Assembly (NCBI RefSeq): GCF_009760405.1
Contig: NZ_WRPP01000010.1
Coordinates: 250,711-274,710 of the forward strand
DNA: 24,000 nucleotides
Source: Nocardia terrae
Lineage (GTDB): Bacteria; Actinomycetota; Actinomycetes; Mycobacteriales; Mycobacteriaceae
Direction: 5' to 3'
Shown here: positions 1,828 to 18,699 of the stretch, in pieces
How positions within the stretch are numbered: position 1 is the first letter of the stretch
How the letters are laid out: every line of letters starts with the position of its first letter
Program-made: the position numbers and the translations under genes
The notes under the pieces: model-generated
What the model saw: the letters and a program-made list of their open reading frames with translations, nothing else
What the model was told of the DNA's origin: nothing
Database searches by the model: none

Positions 1828-2825
1828 TGGGTAGTGGACTTCTTCGTCGTGATCCGCATATCGATCGCTACCCGGCATTACGGGCGCGGATGTTCCAGGC
1901 GATGTTCCCGATCGTGGAACGCCTGCGGTACTCCTCGCCGCACGTGCAGTTCGCGACCAAACCGATCGGCAAGCCTACGACCATGACGGTCCCGACACGG
2001 CACGGTCCAGTCCGCACATTGGTCTACGCTCCCGTTGGCGCCGATGTCGCCGCAACCCGTGCCGAGGGCCGCAAGCCGCCTGTCCACCTGATCATCCACG
2101 GTGGCGCGTTCGTCATTCGCCGCCCTGCGCAGGAGGACAATGTCGCACGGTTTCTCTGTTCGGAGCTCGGCTGCTACGTCGTCCTGCCCGATTACGACAC
2201 CGCGCCGTCGGTTCGATTTCCCGTGTCGGAGGAGCAGTGCTCCGATGTCCTGGCCTGGTTGCGTGACAATGCTGCGGACCTGGGCTGGGACCGCGACCGG
2301 ATCAGCCTCGGCGGCGCCAGCGCCGGCGGCAAGCTCGCCTTGTCCGTGGCACTCGACGCGATCGACCGCGGCGCCTTCGTCCCGATCGCGATCAGCATCG
2401 AATACGGCGCCGCGAACCTGTCCCTTCCCGACTCCGAACGGACCTCACCCAAACGCAATCCAGTGGTAGGTCCGTCACTGATGAACCTGATCCGGACCAC
2501 CTACTTCAAAGACGTCGACACCACCCTGCCCACGGCGTCTCCCGCACTACACCCCCGCAGGGGAGAGCTCCCGCCCACCTTGATCATCACCGCTGATCAA
2601 GACACCGTCCGGCACGAAATGAACCACCTCGCCGCCGACCTACGCGAGCGCGGGGTCGCGGTGACCCACCACGAATTCCCCGGTGTCGACCACGGATTCA
2701 CCCACGCCGAGCCCGTCGAGCAATGCCGCGCCGCGCTGGAAATGATCCGCGATCACCTCGGTTCCGCATATCAGGCCCCACTGACCCGATCGACCGTGGA
2801 GACCCGCAGTGACAGCTCCCGATAA
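1827..2825 (+). CDS. Alpha/beta-hydrolase fold-3 (HSL-type) esterase/lipase
   Basis: Motifs present: HGGAF oxyanion motif, GASAG nucleophile elbow (GxSxG), and C-terminal DHGF histidine motif. The ATG at 1827 overlaps the upstream TGA by 1 nt (TGATG), and GGAGG lies 6 nt upstream. The long 1296.. extension of this ORF overlaps the HdeD gene and is not coding. Confidence 0.85.
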   Translation: MGSGLLRRDPHIDRYPALRARMFQAMFPIVERLRYSSPHVQFATKPIGKPTTMTVPTRHGPVRTLVYAPVGADVAATRAEGRKPPVHLIIHGGAFVIRRPAQEDNVARFLCSELGCYVVLPDYDTAPSVRFPVSEEQCSDVLAWLRDNAADLGWDRDRISLGGASAGGKLALSVALDAIDRGAFVPIAISIEYGAANLSLPDSERTSPKRNPVVGPSLMNLIRTTYFKDVDTTLPTASPALHPRRGELPPTLIITADQDTVRHEMNHLAADLRERGVAVTHHEFPGVDHGFTHAEPVEQCRAALEMIRDHLGSAYQAPLTRSTVETRSDSSR

Positions 2826-3080: not shown

Positions 3081-3956
3081 CTACTGCCGTGGGGCCGCGA
3101 AGTATCCGCGGCAGCTGAACTGTGTGTCGATGTCGCCGTGCGGTTCGGCGTGGCCGTCGTGCAGCATGTTCTCGGTGGGAGCCAGATATGCCTCCCCGGG
3201 GTGGATGGTGAGGCGGGTGACCGGATAGTGGGGGAAGACCTCCATGAAGCGTTGCCCGAGTGCGTACTTCGGGTCCGCGGCGCCCGACAGGAGATCGACT
3301 TGCGCCAGAGCCTGTGCCATTCCCTGGAGTGGCGCGTTCACGAACAGTAGGTGCCGGTCGTGGCTTCCGAGGTTGACGGACAGGCGATTCGGTGCGGTGG
3401 ACCGGTCGGATAGCGGATCGGTGTACCAGCTGTCGACATGCAGGCCGACGCGGCGGCCGTGGCCGCCGGTGGTCATGGTCGGCTGGCCGGCGGGGCTCTT
3501 GCCGTACAGCAGTGGGGCTTCGATCCCGGGGCGGGCGGGATCGGTCAGGGTGGCGGCCCAGCGCAGAATCTCGACCAGCGCGGTCCGGCCCGCCGGGCCG
3601 TGGGCCAGCTCCCGGACACCCGACTCGCCGGTGGCGAGCGGCAGTCCACGAAAAACGGCGCACGCCTCCAGAACACGGGCGGGCGCGGGCAGCACCGCGA
3701 GCCATTCGCCCGGCAGCGCGGCGGGCACCGGACGGCCGAACAGCAGGGCGCGCTCGTGGCAGGTGGGTGCTCGCCAAGGCCCGCGGGGCACGAAGGCACG
3801 GTCGGCGTAGTCCTCGGCATAGGACGTCTCGGAGGCGAGCCGAATTCCGGAGCTGAGCCTGATCCGGTCCGTGGTGGGCGCGCCGGGCGGTAGCAGCATG
3901 GTCATCCCGGCGCGAAGTCCGGTGTGGTCGAGGGCCGTTCGATGCTCGAGCGTCAT
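3081..3956 (-). CDS. Hypothetical protein with HxD...H motif; putative Fe(II)/2-oxoglutarate-type (cupin/DSBH, KdoO-like) oxygenase. Third gene of the RiPP-like operon.
   Basis: Its ATG (3956..3954) overlaps the rSAM stop codon (CTATGA, a 4-nt ATGA overlap). The sequence GLHVDSW...NRLSVNLG...IHPGEAYLAPTENMLHDG resembles a 2-His-1-carboxylate facial triad in a jelly-roll context. The upstream part of ORF 3081..4397 only shadows the rSAM gene. Function is inferred from motifs alone. Confidence 0.55.
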   Translation of the reverse strand: MTLEHRTALDHTGLRAGMTMLLPPGAPTTDRIRLSSGIRLASETSYAEDYADRAFVPRGPWRAPTCHERALLFGRPVPAALPGEWLAVLPAPARVLEACAVFRGLPLATGESGVRELAHGPAGRTALVEILRWAATLTDPARPGIEAPLLYGKSPAGQPTMTTGGHGRRVGLHVDSWYTDPLSDRSTAPNRLSVNLGSHDRHLLFVNAPLQGMAQALAQVDLLSGAADPKYALGQRFMEVFPHYPVTRLTIHPGEAYLAPTENMLHDGHAEPHGDIDTQFSCRGYFAAPRQ

Positions 3957-5071
3957 AGCTCGGTCTCGTGCAGTCGCTCCGCGATATAGGCGATGACCGG
4001 TCGGCCACTGCACAGCATGGTGCCCGCACCGTCCTCGTCGCGCTCGCAGGATTCGGTCTCCGCCAGCAGGGTTCCGCCGCAGGCGTCGAAGAACGGACAG
4101 GGCAGGCAGTTCAGGGCGACCCGGCGTTCGGCCTGCACCGCGCAGCGTTCGAAGACCGGGCCCGACAGCATGTCGGCCACCGAGTCGGTGAAGATATTGC
4201 CGATCGACCAGTCCGCGTCGCCGTACGGTTCGCCATAGGTGTAGCAAGAGCCATCGGTGTCGACCAGCACCACCGGCAGCCAGGCACGCCGGTCCTGGTA
4301 TTCGGGTCCCGGGGCGGCGGACAGGTATCGGGCCGCGATCTCCACGTATCCATCCAGGGGTGCGGGCGGCCGCTGCATGAGGTCGCTGGCCAGCCACAGT
4401 TCGAAGAGGCGTGCGAGCGCGAAAAGCTCTTGCTCCCGGTCGATTTCGAAGGGCGTGGTCTGTCCGGGCTCACCGGTGTCGAACAGCGGCAGCACCCGGA
4501 AGTGGAGTCGCCGTGCCTCGAAGAACCGGAACAGCTCGTCCACAGCCTGAATGTTCTGGGCGGTCAGCACCGAGATGCAGCCGACCCGGCCGCCGTCGGC
4601 CACCAGCCGATCCAGATTGCCCGTGACCCGACGCTGTGAATCCCGCCCGGCCAAATTGACCCGCAATCCGCCGATCACATCCAGTGAGACGCCCACCGAG
4701 TCGAACCCGTGTAACAGCAACCGGCGACGCTCGTCGTCCAGGAGCACCAGATTGGTTTGCACGCTGTTGCGTACCGGGATCCGCTCGCCGAAGATCTCAC
4801 GTTGATCCGCCCATGTCTGCCAATAGAATTCGGCGGGCTGCATGAGCGGCTCGCCGCCGTGCCAGACGAAATGCAAGCCGGTAGCCAGGCCGTCGCGGGC
4901 GTCGACGACATCGAGGTGGTCGCGCAGGGTGCGATACATAGCGCTGACCTGCGCCCGCGACATGGCTGCCCGGTTGCCCAGTTCCGGGTACTCGTAGCAG
5001 TAGCGGCATCGTAGATTGCAGAACTTCGAGACCTTCACCACGATCTGCATGGTCCGGTTGGTCGAATTCAT
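3953..5071 (-). CDS. Radical SAM / SPASM-domain peptide-modifying enzyme (AslB/anSME-like architecture, no N-terminal extension)
   Basis: CNLRCRYC (CxxxCxxC) lies about 20 aa from the N-terminus, followed by a GGEPL SAM-binding motif. The C-terminal Cys cluster is C-x15-G...NCLPCPFFDACGG...C...C (SPASM-like CxxCx5C). Start is ATG 5071 (MNSTNRTMQIVVK), with ATG 5050 as an alternative. The 5131 start of the ORF track would run through the hairpin. Confidence 0.9.
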   Translation of the reverse strand: MNSTNRTMQIVVKVSKFCNLRCRYCYEYPELGNRAAMSRAQVSAMYRTLRDHLDVVDARDGLATGLHFVWHGGEPLMQPAEFYWQTWADQREIFGERIPVRNSVQTNLVLLDDERRRLLLHGFDSVGVSLDVIGGLRVNLAGRDSQRRVTGNLDRLVADGGRVGCISVLTAQNIQAVDELFRFFEARRLHFRVLPLFDTGEPGQTTPFEIDREQELFALARLFELWLASDLMQRPPAPLDGYVEIAARYLSAAPGPEYQDRRAWLPVVLVDTDGSCYTYGEPYGDADWSIGNIFTDSVADMLSGPVFERCAVQAERRVALNCLPCPFFDACGGTLLAETESCERDEDGAGTMLCSGRPVIAYIAERLHETEL

Positions 5072-5110
5072 TTGGTGCACTCTCTTTTTCGCGGAGACGA
5101 ACGACGCTGC

Positions 5111-5144
5111 CCCGTCGTCAGGCGTGCGCACACCTGACGACGGG
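5111..5144 (-). promoter_or_regulatory. Perfect 12-bp GC-rich stem-loop between the precursor and maturase genes (attenuator or transcript-stabilising hairpin)
   Basis: cccgtcgtcagg (5111-5122), loop cgtgcgcaca, cctgacgacggg (5133-5144); the arms are exact reverse complements. There is no T-tract after it on the transcribed strand, so it is not a canonical intrinsic terminator. Confidence 0.6.
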
Positions 5145-5217
5145 TGTGAGAAATTGCTCCGATCGCGGCGAATCGTCCGGTCAGCCGTGCCCCGGACGCG
5201 ACGCCGACGATCCCGGA

Positions 5218-5589
5218 CTACGGCTCCGACAACTCCTGGAAGGGGTCACCGGGAGCCTGGTGGAACGGGATGTCCTGACCGAACGGCGAGCCCTGGCGGA
5301 ACGGCCCCTGATGGAACTGCTGGAACTGATGGAACGGGTTCGGTTTCAGCACATGGGGATTCGTCGCCTGATCGGCCGAGAGCCGCTCGGTGGTGACGCC
5401 CGGGCCCAGCAGCGTCGACAAATGCGCCCGCGCCGCCGTGCCGACATCGGCACTCTGCTGCACGGGCGCCTGCGCCGCCTGGGCCGAACCGGCGATGATG
5501 ACCGCGACCGCGGGGGCCGCGGCCATCGTCGCCGCGATACCGGCGAGCCGTGCGATCGCCGCCGTGCGGCGATGTGATGGAGGTGGCAT
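5218..5589 (-). CDS. Exported repeat peptide, candidate RiPP precursor (signal-peptide-like leader plus F-x-Q repeat core)
   Basis: ATG 5589 is preceded by GGAAGGA 8 nt upstream. N-terminus MPPPSHRRTAAIARLAGIAATMAAAPAVAVIIAGSAQAAQA has an RR-containing n-region, an h-region and AxA sites. C-terminus is NPFHQFQQFHQGPFRQGSPFGQDIPFHQAPGDPFQELSEP. At DNA level this shows as iterated CTGnnnGAA(CGG) on the + strand, 5233-5343. Confidence 0.7.
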   Translation of the reverse strand: MPPPSHRRTAAIARLAGIAATMAAAPAVAVIIAGSAQAAQAPVQQSADVGTAARAHLSTLLGPGVTTERLSADQATNPHVLKPNPFHQFQQFHQGPFRQGSPFGQDIPFHQAPGDPFQELSEP

Positions 5590-6089
5590 TCGGATGTCCT
5601 TCCGGTCCATGTCCCGTCGAATCACTGTGGCCCCGGGGTACTTTCGACGAACGCGACGAGACATCTACAGATAAGGAAGGGGGTTACACCCCGCGCTGTC
5701 GCCGCCGATCCAACACTGACCTCTAGGTTCCGGCTTGCTGGCTCGCGGCGCCCGTGACCACCAACAGCAGGATCGTGACACCGAACGGTAGGGAGAATCT
5801 CGAGCAGAACAGGGTGAGATCGATCTGGCCCAGACGGTTCGAACCCCTACTTCCGAACGTCGACACCGCGCCCAGATCAATTCGGCCCAGTGTGGACGGC
5901 GAAGCCGATGCGCCTGGCAAACCGAAGCCTGGATCAGGCCGGTTGGGGGTCAGGGCGGTAGCGGGCCATGGGCAAGACACCCCGGTCCTGCAGCCGGGCA
6001 GCCGAATTGGAGAGTGGCCCACCGGGTACCTGGACCGGATCCTGGCCGGGACCCGGCCCCGCCATCAAGTGTCCAAGTAGCCGTGAGGC

Positions 6090-6621: not shown

Positions 6622-6828
6622 TTTGGCGGGGGGCGCACCAGCAATAGCTGGCGTGAATCGGATAGTGCTGGAACGTCATTCGAGGCCGTGGCCAGCGGGA
6701 TGTGGCGGGTGCCACGGTCCGGCCATTCGGTGATGGGCATCTCATTTGACTGTCGGGACGTCCGTCCCTTGTGAAAACCTCCGCAAGAAGTTTGCTAGAT
6801 GTTTACTGATTGCGGAGAGGTGTTCTGG

Positions 6829-7476
6829 GTGTCTGTGCGACAAACGGCGACTGCTGGTGCTGGAGTACTGGCCACAGTCCTTCTGGTAGGGGTTTGGGCG
6901 GAAGGTTCGGCGAGTGCGGATGGGGTTGCTGACAAGTATCGGCAGACCGTGACCGATGACGGTTGGACACTGGCGGTCACCAAGACGGGGGAGAATCTGG
7001 ATCGGTGGCCGAACCTGGCGGGATCTCCGGTCAGCCGGGAAGGATTCGTCAGTCTCAAGGCGATCGCCGAGGTTACCGGCGCCGGAACGCAGCCCGTTAC
7101 CGGCGGCACCGTCACCCTCGGTTACCAGATCGGGTGCGCGGTCGATGTCTCCAACGGGCTGACTCTCGGGATGGGGTTGTCGATCGGTCCGAACGCCAGC
7201 GTCACCATCTCGCAATTCCCGGGAGTGACGATCGGCGGGCAGGCCTCGGTGAACCCGAACATCTCCACCACCCTGCGACCCGGTGCGATCTCCACGGTCG
7301 CGTTCGGTTCGAAACCGCTTGCCGCGTCGAGGGGTTCGATCACCGCCGAGCAGGTCGAGATCCGCGTGGACGCCTGCGCGGGACCGGTGACCATCCGCTC
7401 CTACGCCACCGCCGCGATCTCGACCCCGACCGCCGATCACAACATCACCGTCTACGGCGACGCCATCTGGCTGTGA
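6829..7476 (+). CDS. MspA-family mycomembrane porin
   Basis: Motifs resemble M. smegmatis MspA: GTVTLGYQIGCAV (MspA GTLELGYQIGFPW), ISQFPGVTI (MspA NLFPGVSI), C-terminal ITVYGDAIWL (MspA TTYGEPWNMN). Signal peptide VSVRQTATAGAGVLATVLLVGVWAEGSASA. GGAGAGG at 6814-6820 favours GTG 6829 or 6835 over ATG 6799. Confidence 0.85.
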   Translation: MSVRQTATAGAGVLATVLLVGVWAEGSASADGVADKYRQTVTDDGWTLAVTKTGENLDRWPNLAGSPVSREGFVSLKAIAEVTGAGTQPVTGGTVTLGYQIGCAVDVSNGLTLGMGLSIGPNASVTISQFPGVTIGGQASVNPNISTTLRPGAISTVAFGSKPLAASRGSITAEQVEIRVDACAGPVTIRSYATAAISTPTADHNITVYGDAIWL

Positions 7477-7542: not shown

Positions 7543-7830
7543 ATGACCGACACCATTTCCGGCAGCACGACCGCGAGGACTCCCGACACGAAATCTGCTC
7601 CGCAACCATTGAATCCGACCGTTGTCGCGTTCGGTGGTCTGGCGCTGGGACTCGTGCTGTTGATCGTGGCCTTCGCGAATCTGAACCAGATGCCGGGCTG
7701 GGCCGACGATTACGGTTCGATCCTCGTCTATATGGCATTCTTCCTCTACATGTCGATCGCCGGCCGGCTGACCTGGTGGGGCATCGACACACTGCGCGAC
7801 CAGGCCACGGCCCGCCGAGGCCGCCGGTGA
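7543..7830 (+). CDS. Small 2-TM membrane protein (95 aa), hypothetical
   Basis: AAGGAAGG lies 8 nt upstream of the ATG. Two hydrophobic helices: VVAFGGLALGLVLLIVAF and ILVYMAFFLYMSIAG. The stop overlaps the next gene's start (GTGA). Confidence 0.7.
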   Translation: MTDTISGSTTARTPDTKSAPQPLNPTVVAFGGLALGLVLLIVAFANLNQMPGWADDYGSILVYMAFFLYMSIAGRLTWWGIDTLRDQATARRGRR

Positions 7831-10169
7831 GCATCCCGTTCACGCGCCTGTCCGCGCTCGGATTGGCCACGGGCGCAATCGGTCTCGGGATCGGCGCGCT
7901 GGCGCTCGCGGGGTCACCAGCCGCGGACGCGCAAGGTTATGTGCCCTGCGAGCAATGGCAGGCCATGCATCCGGGCTGGCCCTGCATCGATGTCCCGACC
8001 CCGCCGCCCGGCGGACCGCCGACGATCTCGACCCCGCCGCCGCTGCCATCACAGACTCCCGGCGTGCCGTCCCAGCCCGGCGGCGGCGGGGGAATCGGCG
8101 CAGGCGCGCTCACCCCGCCGTCCATCGCGCCGGGCACCGGAACACCGATCGTGCCCATCCCGGCACCTCCAGTGGAATCCGGCGAGGTGTCCGCGCCAAC
8201 CCCGGACCCGTCGCATTCGCCGGCCCCGGTCGCACCGGAAGATCCTGCGAGGCATCCGCACCCGGCCGGTGATACCCCCGCGCCCGAGCCGACCGACACA
8301 CCGGTTCCGCCGCCCGTACTCGCCCCGAGCCCGTCGCGGGACGAAGCGCCGGCCGCGCCGAGTCCGGCGCGTGAGGGCGGTGACGGACGAATCCCGTGGC
8401 TCCTGCTCGCAGGAGCGGGGGCCTTCCTGGCGCCGGCGCTGCGGCTGCGTGGCGGTAGCGCCGCGCGACAGCTGACGATCAACAAGCCCTGGGACGGCGG
8501 GCAACAGACCTTCATTCTGATGACCGACCCGAGCGCACCGCGCGAATACCGTTTCCCGCAAAACATTCCGCCCGGCGGCCGGTTGCGCAAGAATCCCGAT
8601 GGATCGATCGACGTACTCGACAACGCGGGAGCCGTTGTCTCGCACACGAAACCGCCCTGGGCCTACGACGCCCTGGGACGGCCCGTCCGCACGTGGTACG
8701 ACATCGAGGACGACACCATCGTCCAGCACATCGAACCCGACAGCGAGACGGTCTACCCGATCCTGGCCGACCCCGACACCGTGCCGCAGTGCACGATCAG
8801 CGATGACGGCCACGGTGGCACCACCACCTCGAGCAGCCACGGCGACGGCAGTGTCTTCAGCGCCCACGACGACGGGCACGGCAACGTCTCGACCGCCACC
8901 TCCACACCCGTACCCGGCAGTGGCGGCACCATCGACACCCGCATCGACAACGCCGACGGCACCACCAGCGACGTCCGGTCGGTCCCGGACGGAAACGGCG
9001 GGGTGACGACCTGGACCCGCAACCCCGACGGCTCACACACCGTCCAATACCCCGACGGCACGTTCTACCAGGAACCCGCCGCGGGCTCCGACAATCCCAT
9101 CCACGTGCAAGGACAGGTCACCGACACCGGAATCGACTCCCAATTCACCGACGGTTCCGGCAACGTCACCACCGCCACGACCACGACCACACCCGGAAAC
9201 ACCGACCTACACACCGAATACGAGACCCCGACCGGGCACGCGAGCAGTGACAGTCAGGTCACCGCCGGGAATTCGATCATCACCAAAACCCTCGACCAGG
9301 ACGGTGTTCCGATTGTCACCAGGTCGGTCCCGAATGCCGACGGCACGGTGTCCACACACTCGATCGTGGCGCAGACCACCGACGACCAGGGCAATGTGGT
9401 CTATCTGCAAGACGACGGCACACTGTTCACCCCCGATGTCGGTGACGGGACATCGGCCACCACGACCGTGGCCGACGACGGAACGATCACCATCGTGTCC
9501 TCGGACCTTTCGAAAATCGTCCTGTTCGCCGACGGTTCGGCAGCGGCATTCGACAAGTTCGGCAACAAGATCGACAAAGCCATCGACAAACAACTCCAAC
9601 GATGGCCACAGCGTGCCGCGCAGGGCGGCGCGGCGGCCACGAAGTTCCTCGTCGAGCGTCAACTCTCCTCGGTGCTGAGCGCGATGGAAAATCTCACTGC
9701 ACAGCTTTCCCGCGGGCAGGCCGTGATGAACGTCAGCACCGATTTCGATGCCGCATGGCTCGCGGCGTCGCGCTCGGCTTCGCAGAGCGCCGCGGCGGCC
9801 GAGGCGCTCGCGCCCGCGGCGTCGCGGCTCGGATTGGCCGCGAAGGTCCTCGGCAAGAGCGCGATCATCCTCGCCCCGCTCGGCATGTATTTCGATATCA
9901 AGCAGGGCGTTCGTCCGGGGCAGGCGATCACCTCCGGCACCGCGGGTGTCGCGGCCGGCATCCTCGCAGCCCCCGCCATCGCCGCAGGCGTAGCAGCGGC
10001 GGGGCTCGCAGCTCCGGCGATCGTCACAGGTGCCGCGGTGATCGGAGTCAGTGTCGGTGTCTACCTCGGCACCAAATGGCTGTACGGGCAGATGCCGACT
10101 GGCTGGCAAGATGGAATCGATGGTGGACTGCGATCGGTATGGAGCGGAATAAAAGGAGTGTTCTCATGA
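7827..10169 (+). CDS. Large (~780 aa) secreted/membrane protein: signal peptide, Pro-rich linker, TM segment, PWAYDALG domain, DG(S/T)-rich beta-repeat region, C-terminal small-xxx-small hydrophobic domain
   Basis: GTG 7827 is coupled to the upstream stop. Segments: signal-like LSALGLATGAIGLGIGALALAGSPAADA; Pro-rich region about 7995-8385; TM IPWLLLAGAGAFLAPAL; degenerate DG-containing repeats about 8800-9580; Ala/Gly zipper-like hydrophobic tail 9858-10166. No enzymatic motif recognised. Confidence 0.75.
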   Translation: MSIPFTRLSALGLATGAIGLGIGALALAGSPAADAQGYVPCEQWQAMHPGWPCIDVPTPPPGGPPTISTPPPLPSQTPGVPSQPGGGGGIGAGALTPPSIAPGTGTPIVPIPAPPVESGEVSAPTPDPSHSPAPVAPEDPARHPHPAGDTPAPEPTDTPVPPPVLAPSPSRDEAPAAPSPAREGGDGRIPWLLLAGAGAFLAPALRLRGGSAARQLTINKPWDGGQQTFILMTDPSAPREYRFPQNIPPGGRLRKNPDGSIDVLDNAGAVVSHTKPPWAYDALGRPVRTWYDIEDDTIVQHIEPDSETVYPILADPDTVPQCTISDDGHGGTTTSSSHGDGSVFSAHDDGHGNVSTATSTPVPGSGGTIDTRIDNADGTTSDVRSVPDGNGGVTTWTRNPDGSHTVQYPDGTFYQEPAAGSDNPIHVQGQVTDTGIDSQFTDGSGNVTTATTTTTPGNTDLHTEYETPTGHASSDSQVTAGNSIITKTLDQDGVPIVTRSVPNADGTVSTHSIVAQTTDDQGNVVYLQDDGTLFTPDVGDGTSATTTVADDGTITIVSSDLSKIVLFADGSAAAFDKFGNKIDKAIDKQLQRWPQRAAQGGAAATKFLVERQLSSVLSAMENLTAQLSRGQAVMNVSTDFDAAWLAASRSASQSAAAAEALAPAASRLGLAAKVLGKSAIILAPLGMYFDIKQGVRPGQAITSGTAGVAAGILAAPAIAAGVAAAGLAAPAIVTGAAVIGVSVGVYLGTKWLYGQMPTGWQDGIDGGLRSVWSGIKGVFS

Positions 10170-13593: not shown

Positions 13594-14325
13594 TCACGCC
13601 AGTAGCTTGCCCCATCGAGAATCGAGCAGCGGGGCGCCGGCGAGTTGCAGACAGCGCCACAGTGTCACCGCGACCGAGTCCAGAACCGCTGTGCCGGTGT
13701 TCGACTCCAGCTCGGCCACGATCGGCGCCCCGTACAGATTCGTGCACAGGAACACCAGAGCGTCGGGGCGGTCCCGCGCCAGTTCGAGTGAGCCCGGGAG
13801 CAGCTCGCCGGCCCGGACACGGGCGAAGGACTCGTTGTCGCTCAGTCCCAGGGCGCGGTGGGCGGAGACGCGGACCCCTTCGTCGGCATAGCGATCGATC
13901 ACCTGCCGGTTGACATCCGCGGTGTAGGGAGTCATGAGCCCGATCGTCGCGATCCCGAATTCGGCGAAGGCGTCGAGGTAGGCCAGCGTCGACGTCGTTG
14001 CGGGAACGCCTGTGGCTGAGGTGATCTCGGCCGCGATCTCCCGGTCGTGCCGCGGTCCGAGCCATGAGCCGGAGGTGCCGTTCCAGGCGATGACGTCGAC
14101 GTCGGCGGTGGCGAGCAGTTCGGCGGCCCGCCGCATGCCCTCGACATCGAACTGTCGATCCGAGCCCGCGTCGAGCGCGATTCGGGTGACGGGGATGCGT
14201 GCGGAGTGGATCGTGACATCCGCACGGTCGCCGAGGATCCGATAACTCATCGGCTCGAGACACGTGTTCGACGAGGGCACGATCATGCCGATTCTGGTCG
14301 GGCGTCGGGCATCCACTGTGATCAC
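13594..14325 (-). CDS. Asp/Glu racemase superfamily protein, maleate cis-trans isomerase / arylmalonate decarboxylase-like
   Basis: Motifs: RIGMIVPSSNTCLE near the N-terminus, a second Cys motif FLCTNL, and about 240 aa length. GTG 14325 overlaps the upstream stop (GTGA). GTG 14316 is an alternative start, with GGAAGG 8 nt upstream. Confidence 0.8.
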   Translation of the reverse strand: MITVDARRPTRIGMIVPSSNTCLEPMSYRILGDRADVTIHSARIPVTRIALDAGSDRQFDVEGMRRAAELLATADVDVIAWNGTSGSWLGPRHDREIAAEITSATGVPATTSTLAYLDAFAEFGIATIGLMTPYTADVNRQVIDRYADEGVRVSAHRALGLSDNESFARVRAGELLPGSLELARDRPDALVFLCTNLYGAPIVAELESNTGTAVLDSVAVTLWRCLQLAGAPLLDSRWGKLLA

Positions 14326-15740
14326 CTTCCTGCTGCTGCGACGAGTTCTTCGCGTGCCGCCGCCTCGCGGTAGCCGCGGCGCGCGAGGAAACGACCCACC
14401 GGTCCGGGGTCGTGGAAGCCACGCTCGTCGAGGACCACTCGGCCACCCGCCACCACGATCTGCGGCCAGCCGCGCAACAGCTCTCCCTCGAACGGGGAGA
14501 AATCGGTGCCCATGTGCAACGCCCGGCTGTCGACGGCGCGGACCTCGGCGGGGTCGAATACGACGAGGTCGGCGTCGTAGCCGGGCGCGATCACACCCTT
14601 GCCGGGCAACGCGTTGATACGAGCCGGGCCCGTGGAGAACAGTTCCACGAACCGTTCGAGTGCCCGCGGTGTCGGTGAGCCCAGAGCCGTGAACGCGACA
14701 GGCATGCGTGTCTCGACCCCGGGCAGCCCGTGCGGCATCTGCCGGATGTCGTCGCTGCGCTCACGCTTCTGGGTGAGGTCGTAGCAGGAGTGGTCGCTGG
14801 CGATCGTGTGGATCGAGCCGTCCGCGAACCGCTTCCGCAGTGCCGCAACCGTTTCGGGCGAGCGCATGGGCGGGCAGCACGCGAACCGTTCCGGGAAGCG
14901 CGACGCGTACACGCCATCGTCGAGTACCAGGTAATGCGGGCAGGTTTCGGAGTGGACGTCGAGGCCGCGGGCGCGGGCCGCCGCGACCAGGTCGACGGCG
15001 CCGGGCGTCGACTGATGGACGAAATACACCGGTGCGCCGGTGTATTCGGCCATCGCGAGGACCTCACGGACCGAGGCTTCCTCGGCGAGCTCGGGCCGGG
15101 TCTCGTGCAGGTGCGCGATCCCGATCTCACCCGCGGCGGCGTGCCGGGCCGTGCAATCCACGACCAGGGCGTCGTGCTCGGCGTGAATGTAGGTCAGGCC
15201 GTCCAGGCGCACCATTTCCCGCATGACCCGCAGGACGGTGTCGTCGTCGGCCATCGTGGTGCCGCGATTGGTCATGTACATCTTGACCGAGCGAATGCCG
15301 AGCGCCGCGAGTTCCTCGAGCTGCGCCGGTACCGTCTCGTCCCAGGTGATGACCGACGCGTGCAGGGCGACGTCGCAGCGGGCCGCGCGGGCGAGGTCGA
15401 GCTTGTTCCGCGCGGCCGCCAGCGGAGATTCGTCCGCGTCGCGCGGGATGCCGAAGTCGAGAATCGTGGTCGTGCCGCCCCACAGTGCGGCCGTCGACGT
15501 CACCGCGAAGTCGTCGAGCGTGCGATAGCGGCCCGTCACCTGGGCGACGTGGCAATGCCCGTCGACCCCGCCCGGGATCACCACGCGTCCCGTCGCGTCG
15601 ACGACTCGCAGGGCTTCGGGTACCGGCTCGGACGCGTCGAGGACAGCGATCACCCGACCCCCGGAGACGACGACGTGCGCGGCCTGCGAGCCGGAGGCGT
15701 TGACGACGAGACCATGGGCGATCACGAGATCGGCCTTCAT
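14322..15740 (-). CDS. Cyclic amidohydrolase, D-hydantoinase/dihydropyrimidinase family
   Basis: Motifs: GGVDGHCH (HxH metal site), VKMYM (carbamylated Lys context), downstream His residues, and SDHS (catalytic Asp). Length 472 aa. The ATG overlaps the upstream stop (ATGA). Confidence 0.9.
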   Translation of the reverse strand: MKADLVIAHGLVVNASGSQAAHVVVSGGRVIAVLDASEPVPEALRVVDATGRVVIPGGVDGHCHVAQVTGRYRTLDDFAVTSTAALWGGTTTILDFGIPRDADESPLAAARNKLDLARAARCDVALHASVITWDETVPAQLEELAALGIRSVKMYMTNRGTTMADDDTVLRVMREMVRLDGLTYIHAEHDALVVDCTARHAAAGEIGIAHLHETRPELAEEASVREVLAMAEYTGAPVYFVHQSTPGAVDLVAAARARGLDVHSETCPHYLVLDDGVYASRFPERFACCPPMRSPETVAALRKRFADGSIHTIASDHSCYDLTQKRERSDDIRQMPHGLPGVETRMPVAFTALGSPTPRALERFVELFSTGPARINALPGKGVIAPGYDADLVVFDPAEVRAVDSRALHMGTDFSPFEGELLRGWPQIVVAGGRVVLDERGFHDPGPVGRFLARRGYREAAAREELVAAAGR

Positions 15741-16498
15741 GCGGTTCTCCCTTCGGCCTGGGCCGCGGCGATCGCGGATTCAAGCGCCGTTCCGAGACCG
15801 CGACGCGGTTTGGGCGGCGGGGCCGCGAACGAACCGGCCCGGTGCGGCCCGGACGCGAGACCGACGACGGCCTCGGCGAACCGGATGCCCGCCCCGATGC
15901 CGTCGACGACGGGAACCGGGATCTCGGCCATGACATCGCGGGCGAGGCCGGCCAGCGGCGCACCGGCGAGGATCACGACATCGGCACCGTCGTCGGCGAC
16001 CGCGCGCTGTGCCAGCTCCACGAGTGGTGCGCGGAAATCGTCCTGGACGGAACCGATTCCGCGCAGTGCCTGTTTGATCGACCGGATCGAGGCGAGGCGA
16101 TTCCCGAACCCGAAGTGCTCGACGCATTCGCGATACCACGGCGTGATGCGGTCCGAGATCGCGATGATCGAGAAGCGCCGGCCCTGCAGCGCCGCCGCAC
16201 ACAACGCGGCCTCGGTGATCCCGATGACGGGCACGTCCACGAGCTCTTTGAGAGCGGGCATGCCCGGATCGCCGAACGCGGCGACCACCACACCGTCCAC
16301 ATCGCGATGCTCGGCGATCAGCTCCGCGACGGCCTGCGCGGCGAGCAGCGCCTCGAACCTGGTCTCGATGTACTCGACTCCGTGAGCGGCCGTGCGCACG
16401 AGGAGTCCCGTCGTCGGTGCCACCGAGCGCATCGCCTCGGCACGGATCAACTCGGTGACGTCGTCGCTGATGTTGGGGTTGACGACGAGAAGTCTCAT
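15737..16498 (-). CDS. Asp/Glu/hydantoin racemase family protein (hydantoin racemase-like)
   Basis: MRLLVVNPN N-terminus, two conserved Cys contexts (GITEAALCAA and ...), about 250 aa, and genetic coupling to the hydantoinase. GAGGGA lies 5 nt upstream of the ATG. Confidence 0.8.
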   Translation of the reverse strand: MRLLVVNPNISDDVTELIRAEAMRSVAPTTGLLVRTAAHGVEYIETRFEALLAAQAVAELIAEHRDVDGVVVAAFGDPGMPALKELVDVPVIGITEAALCAAALQGRRFSIIAISDRITPWYRECVEHFGFGNRLASIRSIKQALRGIGSVQDDFRAPLVELAQRAVADDGADVVILAGAPLAGLARDVMAEIPVPVVDGIGAGIRFAEAVVGLASGPHRAGSFAAPPPKPRRGLGTALESAIAAAQAEGRTA

Positions 16499-16513
16499 GA
16501 AGATCCCTCTCTC

Positions 16514-17158
16514 TCAGATGGTTTCGGGGTATTGCGCGCGGTACTTGTCGATGTGCTGCGCCGACTGCGCCGCCGCGCGCTCGGGGTCGCCGCTCGCGAT
16601 GGCGGCGAGCAGGTCGCGGTGCTCTTGCACGAGCTCGGGCAGGTTGGTGACGTGGCGGAAGAGCCAGTGCATGCGACCCTGCAGCGGCTCGAGCGCCGTT
16701 CGGAGGAAGCGGTTGTCGGCGATCCTGGTGATCTCGTCGTGGAATTCGCTGTTGGCCCGATGCGCCTCGTTGATGCTGCCGCGGGACAACGCGTCCACGG
16801 CGCGGTCGAGAATGCCCTCGAGTCGTGCGAGGTCCTCGGCGGTGGCGCGCTGGGCGACAAGCGAGCAGGCGAGCACTTCCAGTGAGTGCCGCACTTCGAA
16901 CAGATCCGCCACATCCTTCTCGCTCAGCTCCGCGACCACCGAACCGCGTCCGCGTTCGGTGACCAGGCCCTCCTGGACGAGCATCCGCAGCGCCTCGCGA
17001 ACCGGGAGCCGGGAGACATCGAACTCGGCGGCGAGGTCGCGTTCGACGAGCCGCGTGCCCGGGGCGTAGTGGCCTTCGAAGATGCGCGTCCGAAGCCTGT
17101 CGCGGACCACCTCACGCAGCGGGCGATCTCGCTGTGGCGCTTCGACGGGCGGTGTCAT
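16514..17158 (-). CDS. GntR-family (FadR/FCD subfamily) transcriptional regulator
   Basis: N-terminal wHTH (LVERDLAAEFDVSRLPVREALRMLVQEGLV) plus a helical FCD-like C-terminal domain. ATG 17158 has GAGGAGAAG upstream. Confidence 0.9.
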   Translation of the reverse strand: MTPPVEAPQRDRPLREVVRDRLRTRIFEGHYAPGTRLVERDLAAEFDVSRLPVREALRMLVQEGLVTERGRGSVVAELSEKDVADLFEVRHSLEVLACSLVAQRATAEDLARLEGILDRAVDALSRGSINEAHRANSEFHDEITRIADNRFLRTALEPLQGRMHWLFRHVTNLPELVQEHRDLLAAIASGDPERAAAQSAQHIDKYRAQYPETI

Positions 17159-17213
17159 CACGTCTTCTCCTCGAGTCGGGCTTCTGATTCGATTTCCATT
17201 CGAGCACACCGGG

Positions 17214-18566
17214 TTACACCGGCAGCCGCCTGCTGTAATCGAGAGTGAGGACGCTGCCGCCCATGAGGATCGCAGCACCCACGAAGTACAGCAGCGCGCC
17301 CGTGTAGCCGCCCGTCGCTCCCACGATGAATCCGACGGCGATCGGCGTCACGAAGCCCGAGATATTGCCGGCCAGGTTCATCGCGCCGCCCAGGACTCCG
17401 GCGTTCGTACGGCCGCCGAGGGTTGCCGGAACAGACCAGAACAGTCCCACCCAGCGCAGGAAGAACAGCACCAACGACAGCAGCGCCACCGCGGCGATGG
17501 GCTTGCTCACGATCGTCACGCCTACCAGGCCCATGACGACGAACAGGCTCGAGACACCCAGCAACGAGCGCATGACGACATTGGTGTGGAATCCCTTGAC
17601 GCGGAGCCGGTCGGCGAGCAGGCCGCCGAGGATCTCCCCGACGAAGCCCGCACCGAAGATCACGAACGTCGACCAGCCGATCGAGGCGAGCTTGAAGCCC
17701 TTGGCCTCCGACAGATACAGCGGCCCCCAGGTGAGCAGGCCGTAGAACACGCCGTTGAAGCCGAGCCAGCCCAGGCACATCGCCCAGAACGAGCGGAACT
17801 TCAGATACGGCAACAGGCCACGGCGGGTCGTGCCGCCCTCGGCGAGCGCCGCCTCGTCCTCGGCCCGGTGCGACGCCTCGATATACGCGGCCTCGGCCTC
17901 GTTGACTCCCGGGTGCTGACGCGGGTTGTCCCGCACGTACCACCACACCAGCGCCCCGAGCAGCGCCGTCACGACGCCGGCGATGATGAACGCCATCCGC
18001 CAGCCGCCGAATGCCGCGATCAGTCCCGTCACGAGGATGCCGCCGACGCCCGCGCCGAGCGGAGCACCGGCGTCGAGAATCGTTGCCCCACGGCCACGTT
18101 CCTTGGAATGCATCCATATCGCATTGAGCTTCCCGCCCGCGGGCATCACGCCGGCCTCGGTGACGCCGATGCCCATGCGTGCGATGAACATGCTGACGAA
18201 CCCGCCGGCCAACCCCGAGGCCGCGGTCGCGGCACCCCATCCGACACACGAGGCCGTGATGACCTTGCGCGGGCCGAAGCGGTCGATCAGTAAGCCGACC
18301 GGCACCTGCATGGCGGCATAGGACCAGAAGAACGCTGAGAGCAGAAGGCCCACGAGAGTATGCGAGAGCCCGAAGTCCTTCTGGATGAGGGGGAGCGCGA
18401 CCGAGATCGAACCCCGGTCGACATAGTTGATGGCCACGAGAAACAGCAGCAGGACGAACAGCTTCCACCGGACGTTCGTCCGCGCGACCGGGGCGATGTC
18501 CACGGTGTGCGGTGGTAGGGCATTGGCAGCAGTGCCTTTGCCCGAGGTCTCCTCTTGAAGGGACAT
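17214..18566 (-). CDS. MFS transporter, anion:cation symporter (ACS)-like
   Basis: 12 TM segments. MFS signatures: LLIDRFGPRKV (loop 2-3) and DRLRVKG. ATG 18566 is preceded by GAAGGAGGAG 5 nt upstream; ATG 18584 is an upstream alternative. Confidence 0.9.
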   Translation of the reverse strand: MSLQEETSGKGTAANALPPHTVDIAPVARTNVRWKLFVLLLFLVAINYVDRGSISVALPLIQKDFGLSHTLVGLLLSAFFWSYAAMQVPVGLLIDRFGPRKVITASCVGWGAATAASGLAGGFVSMFIARMGIGVTEAGVMPAGGKLNAIWMHSKERGRGATILDAGAPLGAGVGGILVTGLIAAFGGWRMAFIIAGVVTALLGALVWWYVRDNPRQHPGVNEAEAAYIEASHRAEDEAALAEGGTTRRGLLPYLKFRSFWAMCLGWLGFNGVFYGLLTWGPLYLSEAKGFKLASIGWSTFVIFGAGFVGEILGGLLADRLRVKGFHTNVVMRSLLGVSSLFVVMGLVGVTIVSKPIAAVALLSLVLFFLRWVGLFWSVPATLGGRTNAGVLGGAMNLAGNISGFVTPIAVGFIVGATGGYTGALLYFVGAAILMGGSVLTLDYSRRLPV

Positions 18567-18640
18567 CAGCTCCTCCTTCAACATGGGGAAAGGTCCGTCC
18601 GGCTCGTGCGCGGCCGTCCTGGGAGGCAAGTAGAGAATAT

Positions 18641-18664
18641 CTTGGGATCCCGCAGTGGGATTCC
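18641..18664. promoter_or_regulatory. Candidate operator, copy 1 (cTTGGGATCCCgcagTGGGATtCC)
   Basis: Contains the 8-bp palindrome GGGATCCC plus the half-palindrome TGGGATTCCA. Lies in the divergent MFS/FAH intergenic region and is repeated 59 nt downstream. Confidence 0.45.
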
Positions 18665-18699
18665 AGGATCGTAAGTGCACGTCAGGCCGCAGTCAAGAC

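Follow-up and report, generated by a model that had tools for sequence, protein, structure and literature searches.

A candidate three-gene RiPP operon of the cyclophane kind with a MicC-family oxygenase in Nocardia terrae

As listed in Table 1, three co-directional genes, here called A, B, and C, lie on the minus strand of a 24,000-nucleotide stretch of the Nocardia terrae ET3-3 genome (RefSeq assembly GCF_009760405.1, contig NZ_WRPP01000010.1, positions 250,711 to 274,710; the whole stretch is called the window). They encode a small protein with repeated F-x-[Q/E] motifs, a radical S-adenosylmethionine (SAM) enzyme, and an oxygenase of the MicC family, and the 100% matches to all three proteins carry Nocardia terrae (Nocardia sp. 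ET3-3) as their source name. I estimate a probability of roughly 0.6 that A, B, and C form a minimal operon for a peptide made by the ribosome and modified after translation (RiPP), of the cyclophane (triceptide-like) kind, in which a MicC-type oxygenase is the second tailoring enzyme. An initial annotation, made from the nucleotide sequence, had proposed such a peptide-modification cassette, and the genes, coordinates, motifs, hairpin, and gene overlap that it described are all present. The cyclophane reading agrees with the matches of B to DynA and ChlB, with the precursor motifs, and with the conserved pairing of precursor and enzyme. The same annotation regarded the combination as undescribed; this does not hold, because gene C is homologous to MicC, which has been characterised in the minviopeptin triceptide cluster. 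Since the MicC paper has already noted clusters of a radical SAM enzyme with a MicC homologue in Actinomycetota (PMC12912966, PNAS 2026), this kind of cluster is already published. Thus, the cassette is a genuine, uncharacterised RiPP system of a recently described kind and not an undescribed class; both the types of enzyme and the logic of the cluster are in print, and no new class is opened. In the literature covered, which left the supplement of the MicC paper outside, no characterised actinomycete example of a cluster that has a radical SAM enzyme together with a MicC homologue was found. No enzyme acting on F-x-Q was described in the searchable literature, outside of which stand that supplement and the triceptide surveys Sugiyama 2022 and Phan and Morinaka 2022. 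A search with motif-based enzyme names (FhqB, FxqB, 'FxQ motif') gave irrelevant papers only.

Table 1. Features of the cassette, in positions of the window.
Feature	Position	Strand	Basis
Gene A, 123-aa precursor (signal-like leader, variable linker, F-x-Q/E core)	5218..5589	-	Open reading frame and translation
Leader of A, residues 1-38, Sec-type signal-like, A-x-A site A36-Q-A38/A39, unusually conserved	5476..5589	-	By-eye reading, nine-orthologue alignment
Core of A, residues 83-123, PNPFHQFQQFHQGPFRQGSPFGQDIPFHQAPGDPFQELSEP, seven F-x-[Q/E] motifs, five preceded by Pro	5221..5343	-	Motif count and shuffle test
Codons Gly95 to Gly100 (G-P-F-R-Q-G), candidate MicC-type cleavage/amidation sites	5290..5307	-	Invariant Gly; putative assignment
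Stem-loop, 15 bp, GCGC loop, no U-tract	5111..5144	-	Folding, z = -4.2
Gene B, cyclophane-synthase-like peptide maturase of the radical SAM type, 372 aa from ATG	3953..5071	-	Pfam Radical_SAM, 6.6e-12
C18-x3-C22-x2-C25, radical SAM [4Fe-4S] motif	4997..5020	-	Sequence; invariant in 17 family members
C322-x2-C325-x5-C331...C354, sole family-conserved C-terminal Cys	4010..4108	-	Alignment A2
Gene C, MicC-family 2-oxoglutarate/Fe(II) oxygenase, 291 aa	3081..3956	-	Homology to MicC, PDB 9VKM
H173-V-D175, facial triad (MicC H160-x-D162)	3432..3440	-	Invariant; aligned to MicC triad
R201 (MicC R188), binder of the 2-oxoglutarate C5 carboxylate	3354..3356	-	Invariant; alignment mapping
H266, third triad ligand (MicC H253)	3159..3161	-	Invariant; aligned to MicC

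Gene C and the minviopeptin oxygenase MicC

By sequence comparison, the product of gene C is a full-length MicC homologue in which the facial triad and the 2-oxoglutarate (2OG)-binding Arg are conserved. A phmmer search with this protein alone against PDB 9VKM gave an E value of 6e-24 across residues 16-286. The profile A1, built from 23 homologues of C, had a single PDB match, and this was again 9VKM (E 2e-52). The entry is described as 'alpha-ketoglutarate-dependent non-heme iron oxygenase MicC', and in the alignment a 20-residue tag shifts the numbering of its chain. H173, D175, and H266 are invariant in the 23 homologues, and the spacing between the two His residues is 93 residues in both C and MicC. 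Y257 corresponds to MicC Y244 and is likewise invariant among the relatives of C. An AlphaFold model based on the 23-sequence alignment reached a pLDDT of 91.9, and its best PDB matches in Foldseek were FIH, JmjC demethylases, and TmpA, all of which are 2OG oxygenases. Thus, the invariant triad, the confident model, and the fold matches bear out the HxD...H oxygenase-like character that had been assigned to the third gene. 9VKM was not in the Foldseek list for this model, and the likeness to MicC rests on sequence. A homologue of C (P0127) is named 'Phytanoyl-CoA dioxygenase'.

The reference chemistry comes from the minviopeptin cluster of Mucilaginibacter inviolabilis, which encodes the precursor MicA, the radical SAM cyclophane synthase MicB, the oxygenase MicC, and the ADP-ribosyltransferase MicD (PMC12912966). 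According to the same paper (PMC12912966), MicB forms cyclophanes on YSK/HAS/FTK, MicD then ADP-ribosylates a His residue, and this prior ADP-ribosylation is required by MicC. MicC hydroxylates the Cα of the Gly directly after the HAS ring, between YSKIHAS and GGFTKDL, and the N-Cα bond then breaks so that a C-terminal amide remains (PMC12912966). The Gly is strictly required, as a G8A variant was uncleaved; the triad H160/D162/H253 and the two ligands of the 2OG C5 carboxylate, R188 and K266, are essential, while the Y244A substitution of the Tyr near 2OG had little effect (PMC12912966). The initial annotation implied a simple hydroxylation of +16 Da; the known reaction of MicC is a different one, in which the N-Cα bond at a Gly is cleaved oxidatively and an amide is formed.

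The Nocardia cassette resembles the mic cluster in its order, with a small precursor carrying several aromatic-x-x motifs, then a PasB/daropeptide-like radical SAM enzyme (B stands beside MicB by description), then a MicC-family oxygenase. Both systems also have a Gly immediately after a motif and a last motif near the C-terminus of the precursor (FTKDL in MicA, FQELSEP in Nocardia). In contrast, the Nocardia cassette has no recognisable gene for an ADP-ribosyltransferase and none for a transporter or a peptidase, its leader is signal-like, it offers seven Phe-x-Gln/Glu motifs instead of YSK/HAS/FTK, and its host is an actinomycete.

The precursor and the radical SAM enzyme

The translation of gene A confirmed a 123-aa protein with a signal-peptide-like N-terminus and seven F-x-Q/E motifs in a C-terminal stretch of 40 residues. 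The motifs are FHQ86, FQQ89, FHQ92, FRQ97, FGQ103, FHQ109, and FQE117. All seven Phe residues of the protein fall within residues 86-117, and every one of them opens an F-x-[Q/E] motif. When residues 83-123 were shuffled, the mean number of motifs was 1.7, and the probability of reaching seven was about 1e-5. Homologues of gene A (nine sequences) are confined to Nocardia, and all nine of these orthologues keep the seven motifs. The invariant core residues are P83, P85, F86, H87, Q88, F89, Q91, G95, P96, F97, Q99, G100, F103, P108, F109, F117, and P123; all seven motifs have in common only the F (position i) and the Q/E (i+2), with His in some of them. Gly95 and Gly100 each follow immediately after the third residue of a motif, and around Gly95 the spacing of the third motif residue, Gly, x, and an aromatic residue is identical to that of the MicC cleavage site. 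Neither A nor C matches any model in Pfam or NCBIfam. The precursor (P0148) is named 'Serine protease' in UniRef, and the public names are inconsistent.

The start of gene A at 5589 is backed by the N-termini of the orthologues. An ATG at 5664 was rejected as the start, since the orthologues and the NCBI record begin at 5589. The N-terminus has a basic n-region (R7, R8, R14), about 20 hydrophobic residues, and then A36-Q-A38 followed by A39. The nine orthologues share the leader pattern AAIARLA.IAA.M.A.PA, while the linker (residues 40-82) varies. Export through Sec or Tat had been suggested at first. A Sec-type signal is plausible, and Sec is favoured over Tat because the twin Arg is not conserved among the orthologues; with R8 alone invariant, Tat export of gene A was rejected.

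Gene B begins at an ATG. A GTG at 5131 was rejected as its start because it sits within the hairpin and the homologues begin at the ATG. The initial annotation had suggested a model scan of the three proteins and had described B as a radical SAM enzyme with a SPASM-like Cys cluster. The scan places B in Pfam Radical_SAM without reaching any NCBIfam cut-off. The CxxxCxxC motif stands as described. The C-terminal cluster is different; the SPASM model of Pfam matches weakly, with 15.6 bits where 21.5 is the cut-off, and the only C-terminal Cys residues invariant across 17 diverse members of the B family are C322, C325, C331, and C354. With only four invariant residues, this region looks like one auxiliary-cluster motif and not the full seven-Cys SPASM set. 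DarE was measured to have two [4Fe-4S] clusters in total (PMC9055067), which is consistent with the four conserved C-terminal Cys residues of B.

Among the NCBIfam models, DynA (NF041298) gave the top score, 127.8 bits against a cut-off of 450, followed by that of the anaerobic sulfatase-maturing enzyme (anSME; TIGR03942) with 104.4 against 349. DarW scored 82 bits, AmcB 81 (cut-off 425), GrrM/OscB 79 (310), NF038005 65 (650), and YhhB 64 (445). FxsB (TIGR04269) scored 57.7 against 370, and the precursor ends in ...PFQELSEP and not in FxSxx-COOH. XyeB (TIGR04496) scored 37.3 against 450, with the N-terminal third of B alone matching. Membership of B in FxsB, XyeB, anSME, and DynA was thus rejected on score. 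The nearest PDB entries are the triceptide synthase ChlB (3e-13) and then an anSME.

Two groups of characterised peptide cyclases bear comparison with B. Like the systems of the triceptide synthases (XyeB, GrrM/OscB, FxsB, YhhB, AmcB, ChlB, HtkB, HaaB), the cassette has an iterated aromatic-X-X precursor beside a radical SAM enzyme; of the solved structures, ChlB comes nearest to B, and motifs containing Phe are known substrates (PMC11499958). In contrast, B lies far below the cut-offs of XyeB, GrrM, FxsB, YhhB, and AmcB, and only four C-terminal Cys residues are conserved in its family. The daropeptide maturases (DynA, DarE, DarW) include the best model for B and the two-cluster enzyme DarE. 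They differ in that B scores 128 of the 450 set for DynA, that the core of A lacks an aromatic-x-aromatic motif, and that the Nocardia cassette has no dedicated ABC exporter and a long precursor with many motifs.

The second rank of the anSME model (104 bits), the second-closest PDB entry, and the NCBI name 'anaerobic sulfatase-maturation protein' for one homologue of B (P0012) might suggest that B is a sulfatase-maturing or another non-peptide radical SAM enzyme and that the small gene encodes an unrelated secreted protein. This is very improbable. The score is far under the cut-off of 349, no sulfatase gene is among the genes of the window, the small upstream gene is conserved across phyla, and B or its relatives are fused to or paired with a MicC-like peptide-tailoring enzyme. 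Clustering of B with sulfatase maturases had been proposed as evidence against a peptide role, and it turned out not to discriminate: anSME is the second-best match, and DarE-type cyclophane synthases themselves resemble AnSME. DarE is closest to AnSME in full-length sequence and yet behaves like the cyclophane formers (PMC10288494); for this reason, the anSME likeness is no argument against a peptide role of B. Nearly all homologues of B are named merely 'radical SAM protein'.

Genes A and B are separated by a stem-loop, and genes B and C overlap, the ATG of C sharing the ATGA at 3953-3956 with the TGA of B. The perfect 12-bp hairpin reported after gene A was found to extend to 15 pairs (one of them G-U). 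Measured against shuffled sequences, the fold of the A-B intergenic region has z = -4.2. Three other Nocardia loci have a stem in the corresponding position, with paired changes from T-A to C-G at two positions. A consensus terminator scan did not call the A-B stem-loop.

Recurrence and family context of the cassette

Is the association of the three genes a local accident? The unit of A, B, and C, whose co-occurrence the initial annotation had wished to see checked, recurs between unrelated genes in Nocardia and Actinocrinis. Five cassettes with unrelated flanks were found, namely that of the window, two in N. arthritidis, one in Nocardia sp. BMG111209, and one in Actinocrinis. Since the trio recurs between unrelated genes, the cassette is the functional unit. 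The Actinocrinis precursor is related to that of Nocardia, with FSQ/FDQ/FGE/FTE/FSE motifs and a similar leader (KKAASLTRLVAIAATMGA). The two cassettes of N. arthritidis are paralogous and lie at distant chromosomal sites (L001 4489-7101 and L088 5532-8094), and one of them adjoins a large polyketide synthase gene. In Nocardia sp. BMG111209 (L089 8156-11067), the cassette is followed by co-directional genes for a PIG-L deacetylase, an R2K_3 (ATP-grasp-like) protein, a methyltransferase, and a 153-aa open reading frame (ORF); these four, which the window does not have, may serve in additional tailoring. In a metagenomic locus (L007 4361-6936), the radical SAM gene is split into ORFs of 271 and 126 aa, by a frameshift or an assembly error. 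An overlapping MicC-like gene follows it, and the precursor starts with MSEEELAKASGG, an unusually short GG leader.

The pairing of a precursor with the radical SAM enzyme extends far beyond these cassettes and is conserved across the gene B family, as the initial annotation had anticipated. Homologues of B with 40-80% identity number in the hundreds and come from Nocardia, Streptomyces, Actinosynnema, myxobacteria, and cyanobacteria; the context is common to at least 783 homologues. In all contexts inspected and in most of the 43 genome loci scanned, a small gene is found upstream of the B homologue, 100-200 bp away. In the loci of Nocardia, Streptomyces, myxobacteria, and cyanobacteria, the core encoded by the small gene carries aromatic-x-polar motifs, and across the family these include WGE/WSQ/WHE, FGQ/FNE/YNE/YLQ, FVQ/FVK/WVE, and FIE/FIQ. 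A small upstream gene with such cores is the signature of triceptide and daropeptide precursor-maturase pairs (PMC11499958).

A MicC-like gene lies directly 3′ of B in 23 of the 91 loci, in several phyla, as judged from a hidden Markov model of C against six-frame ORFs. These loci include four from Nocardia, one from Actinocrinis, 14 from cyanobacteria, one each from a gammaproteobacterium and an alphaproteobacterium, and one from a Kofleriaceae metagenome-assembled genome. In two loci (L026 and L041), B and C are in one open reading frame. A word-indexed search had given only 27 relatives of gene C, while an exhaustive profile search of a 1.84-billion-protein library gave 1,602 MicC-like cluster representatives at 50% identity, 891 of them with E < 1e-30. 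Among these are fusions of a radical SAM enzyme with MicC (P0204, P0271), with two MicC units in succession (P0157), and with MicC and GNAT (P0262), as well as fusions of a tryptophan halogenase with MicC (P0228, P0254, P0301). No Pfam model exists for the MicC-like family, in which fusions to radical SAM enzymes or to tryptophan halogenases are frequent.

Two types of leader alternate in the precursors of this single radical SAM family. A signal-like N-terminus is found in Streptomyces, myxobacteria, many cyanobacteria, and Bacteroidota, while a Nif11 leader ending in GG is found in other cyanobacteria and one gammaproteobacterium. Sec-type leaders occur in L018, L020, L022-L024, L027, L029, L031-L033, L036, and L037, and Nif11-GG leaders in L016, L017, L019, L025, L026, L041, L044, and L047. 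Both types are export-linked, and their alternation within one family points to two different export routes.

The N-terminus of A could instead be a hydrophobic leader helix that serves B only, with a product that stays intracellular or leaves through an unlinked transporter. The hydrophobic region is indeed far more conserved than in usual signal peptides, even between Nocardia and Actinocrinis, and a similar x-L-x-x-L-x-x-hydrophobic...P pattern is seen in the Streptomyces and myxobacterial homologues. I regard this as unlikely, considering the classic layout, in which a basic n-region and then some 20 hydrophobic residues precede an invariant A-x-A, and considering the cyanobacterial relatives with clear signal peptides or Nif11-GG export leaders. 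Moreover, RiPP precursors with a Sec signal are known, namely the bufferins (PMC11626156). Bufferins, which are modified by MNIO enzymes, resemble the Nocardia system in having a long precursor with a Sec-type signal and no dedicated exporter or protease (PMC11626156). Their MNIO/DUF2063 enzymes and thiooxazole chemistry are unrelated.

A C-terminal motif, S-A-x-(E/D)-(T/L)-F-x-x-L, is shared by precursors across the radical SAM family (L016-L036, L026, L041, L012-L013, L004), with examples such as PSAVETFRSL, SAVELFQSL, SAQELFDRL, SFADLLDEV, and SFAELLGRV. The Nocardia ending PFQELSEP (window 5221-5244) and FTKDL of MicA look related to it. The motif may be a follower recognition element, instead of or besides a cross-link site.

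Proposed maturation, surroundings, and meaning

The homology of C to MicC with its catalytic residues, the radical SAM motifs of B, the synteny of precursor and enzymes, and the B-C fusions suggest the following course of maturation, in which each reaction is a proposal. In the cytoplasm, B would remove a side-chain hydrogen, most likely at Cβ, from the Gln/Glu that ends each F-x-[Q/E] motif of the 123-aa precursor. A bond between that carbon and the Phe ring would close a three-residue cyclophane, with -2 Da for each ring and as many as seven rings in one peptide. As a MicC homologue, C would then hydroxylate the Cα of an invariant Gly after a cyclophane, putatively Gly95 and perhaps Gly100. 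N-Cα cleavage would leave a C-terminal Gln-amide, ...PNPFHQFQQFHQ-NH2 (...FHQFQQFHQ-NH2), on the leader-bearing fragment and release a C-terminal follower. The leader-bearing fragment would be exported by Sec and cut by signal peptidase between A38 and A39, after which it may be trimmed at conserved Pro residues. That the leader is so strongly conserved suggests that it doubles as a recognition sequence for B. Owing to the A-B stem-loop, transcript of the precursor is probably more abundant than that of the enzymes.

Several points weigh against this scheme, and some of them touch the export and the setting of the cassette. The signal peptide of A was judged by eye only, and Sec may accept macrocyclised peptides poorly (PMC11626156). 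The five cassettes have no conserved fourth gene in common, and the ORFs upstream of A differ from locus to locus. No ADP-ribosyltransferase was recognised among the neighbours, where no direct search with the MicD sequence was made.

Other points concern the reaction of C. MicC K266 aligns with Q279 of C, a position that is unconserved in the subfamily. R191 of C is invariant and has no counterpart in MicC; it might compensate for the missing K266 equivalent. Moreover, MicC-like genes stand beside precursors with Gly-free cores (L016, L019), which indicates that Gly cleavage is not the universal role of the MicC-like partner. It is therefore conceivable, if somewhat unlikely, that the cassette is as described and that C hydroxylates side chains (Gln, His, Pro, Phe, or Asp, at +16 Da) or performs some other oxidation without Gly cleavage. 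The loss of a Lys that is essential in MicC, the apparent lack of the ADP-ribosyltransferase that MicC requires, and the Gly-free cores all fit such a role, as do the best Foldseek matches, FIH and JmjC, which are protein hydroxylases; the authors of the MicC study themselves suggested functional diversification among the homologues (PMC12912966). On the other hand, the sole characterised member of the family cleaves at Gly, and the invariant Gly95 and Gly100 lie exactly after the third motif residue, as in MicA. Cleavage at Gly is retained here as the proposed reaction.

The remaining points concern the reaction of B. Since B falls below every named-family cut-off, both the bond type and its register are conjectural, and an alternative register, His87-x-Phe89, would be like the His-x-Tyr link of dynobactin. 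B may then make another cross-link, such as a His(N or C2)-to-Phe Cβ bond with H-Q-F as its register, an ether, or a link to a different carbon of Gln. Among the NCBIfam models DynA matches B best, H87 is invariant in the H-Q-F of residues 87-89, related enzymes make C-C, C-N, and C-O links (PMC11499958), and WprB joins Trp to Cγ of Arg and not to Cβ (PMC11851443). Such a link is nevertheless improbable: F(i) and Q/E(i+2) are conserved in all seven motifs while His occurs in some, and daropeptide motifs in which an ether is formed require an aromatic residue in third place, which the motifs of A do not have.

A cyclophane between Phe and the third residue is still preferred, and a fuller picture can be drawn from it, although it is doubtful that all of its parts hold together. 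The product would be a Sec-exported peptide with up to seven contiguous or nearly contiguous Phe-Gln cyclophanes. Its oxygenase would act without ADP-ribosylation and cut at two Gly residues, leaving the FHQFQQFHQ-NH2 tri-cyclophane, or would carry out a new oxidation. The N-terminus of the precursor would serve both as a Sec signal and as a leader for the radical SAM enzyme. The family of B would be a large unnamed clade of cyclophane synthases that switches between Sec and Nif11-GG leaders and shares a follower motif.

The surroundings of the cassette were also inspected. As noted initially, there is no protease or ABC exporter among the genes near the cassette in the window. An Abhydrolase_3 esterase gene (1878-2825, plus strand) is convergent with gene C. 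The idea that this alpha/beta hydrolase might be a prolyl peptidase acting at the Pro-Phe sites was rejected, as its main match is to the esterase family Abhydrolase_3 (1e-46), its Peptidase_S9 match is weak, and it is not syntenic in other Nocardia. The esterases near the cassettes of the window and of N. arthritidis are not similar to each other. About 1.2 kb upstream of gene A, a divergent gene (6799-7476, plus strand) encodes an MspA-family porin (Pfam MspA, 2e-54), and a DUF8020 gene adjoins an N. arthritidis cassette in its place. Farther away, a 797-aa ORF (7776-10169, plus strand) is rich in Pro/Thr/Gly/Asp, with a signal-like start, a hydrophobic Ala/Gly-rich C-terminus, and no Pfam match. 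A hydantoin/amino-acid-utilisation-like run on the minus strand (14322-18680; amidohydrolase, Asp/Glu/hydantoin racemase, GntR/FCD regulator, MFS transporter) has no relation to the cassette.

For an uncharacterised actinomycete peptide, the analysis gives a concrete prediction of sites: seven Phe-x-Gln/Glu staples and amidating cleavage at Gly95/Gly100. As for the families themselves, that of the MicC-like proteins is large, and the B family pairs with precursors bearing either a Sec signal or a Nif11 leader. The Nocardia cassette would be a natural test of MicC-type action without ADP-ribosylation, which matters for the use of such enzymes as general peptide-amidating tools.

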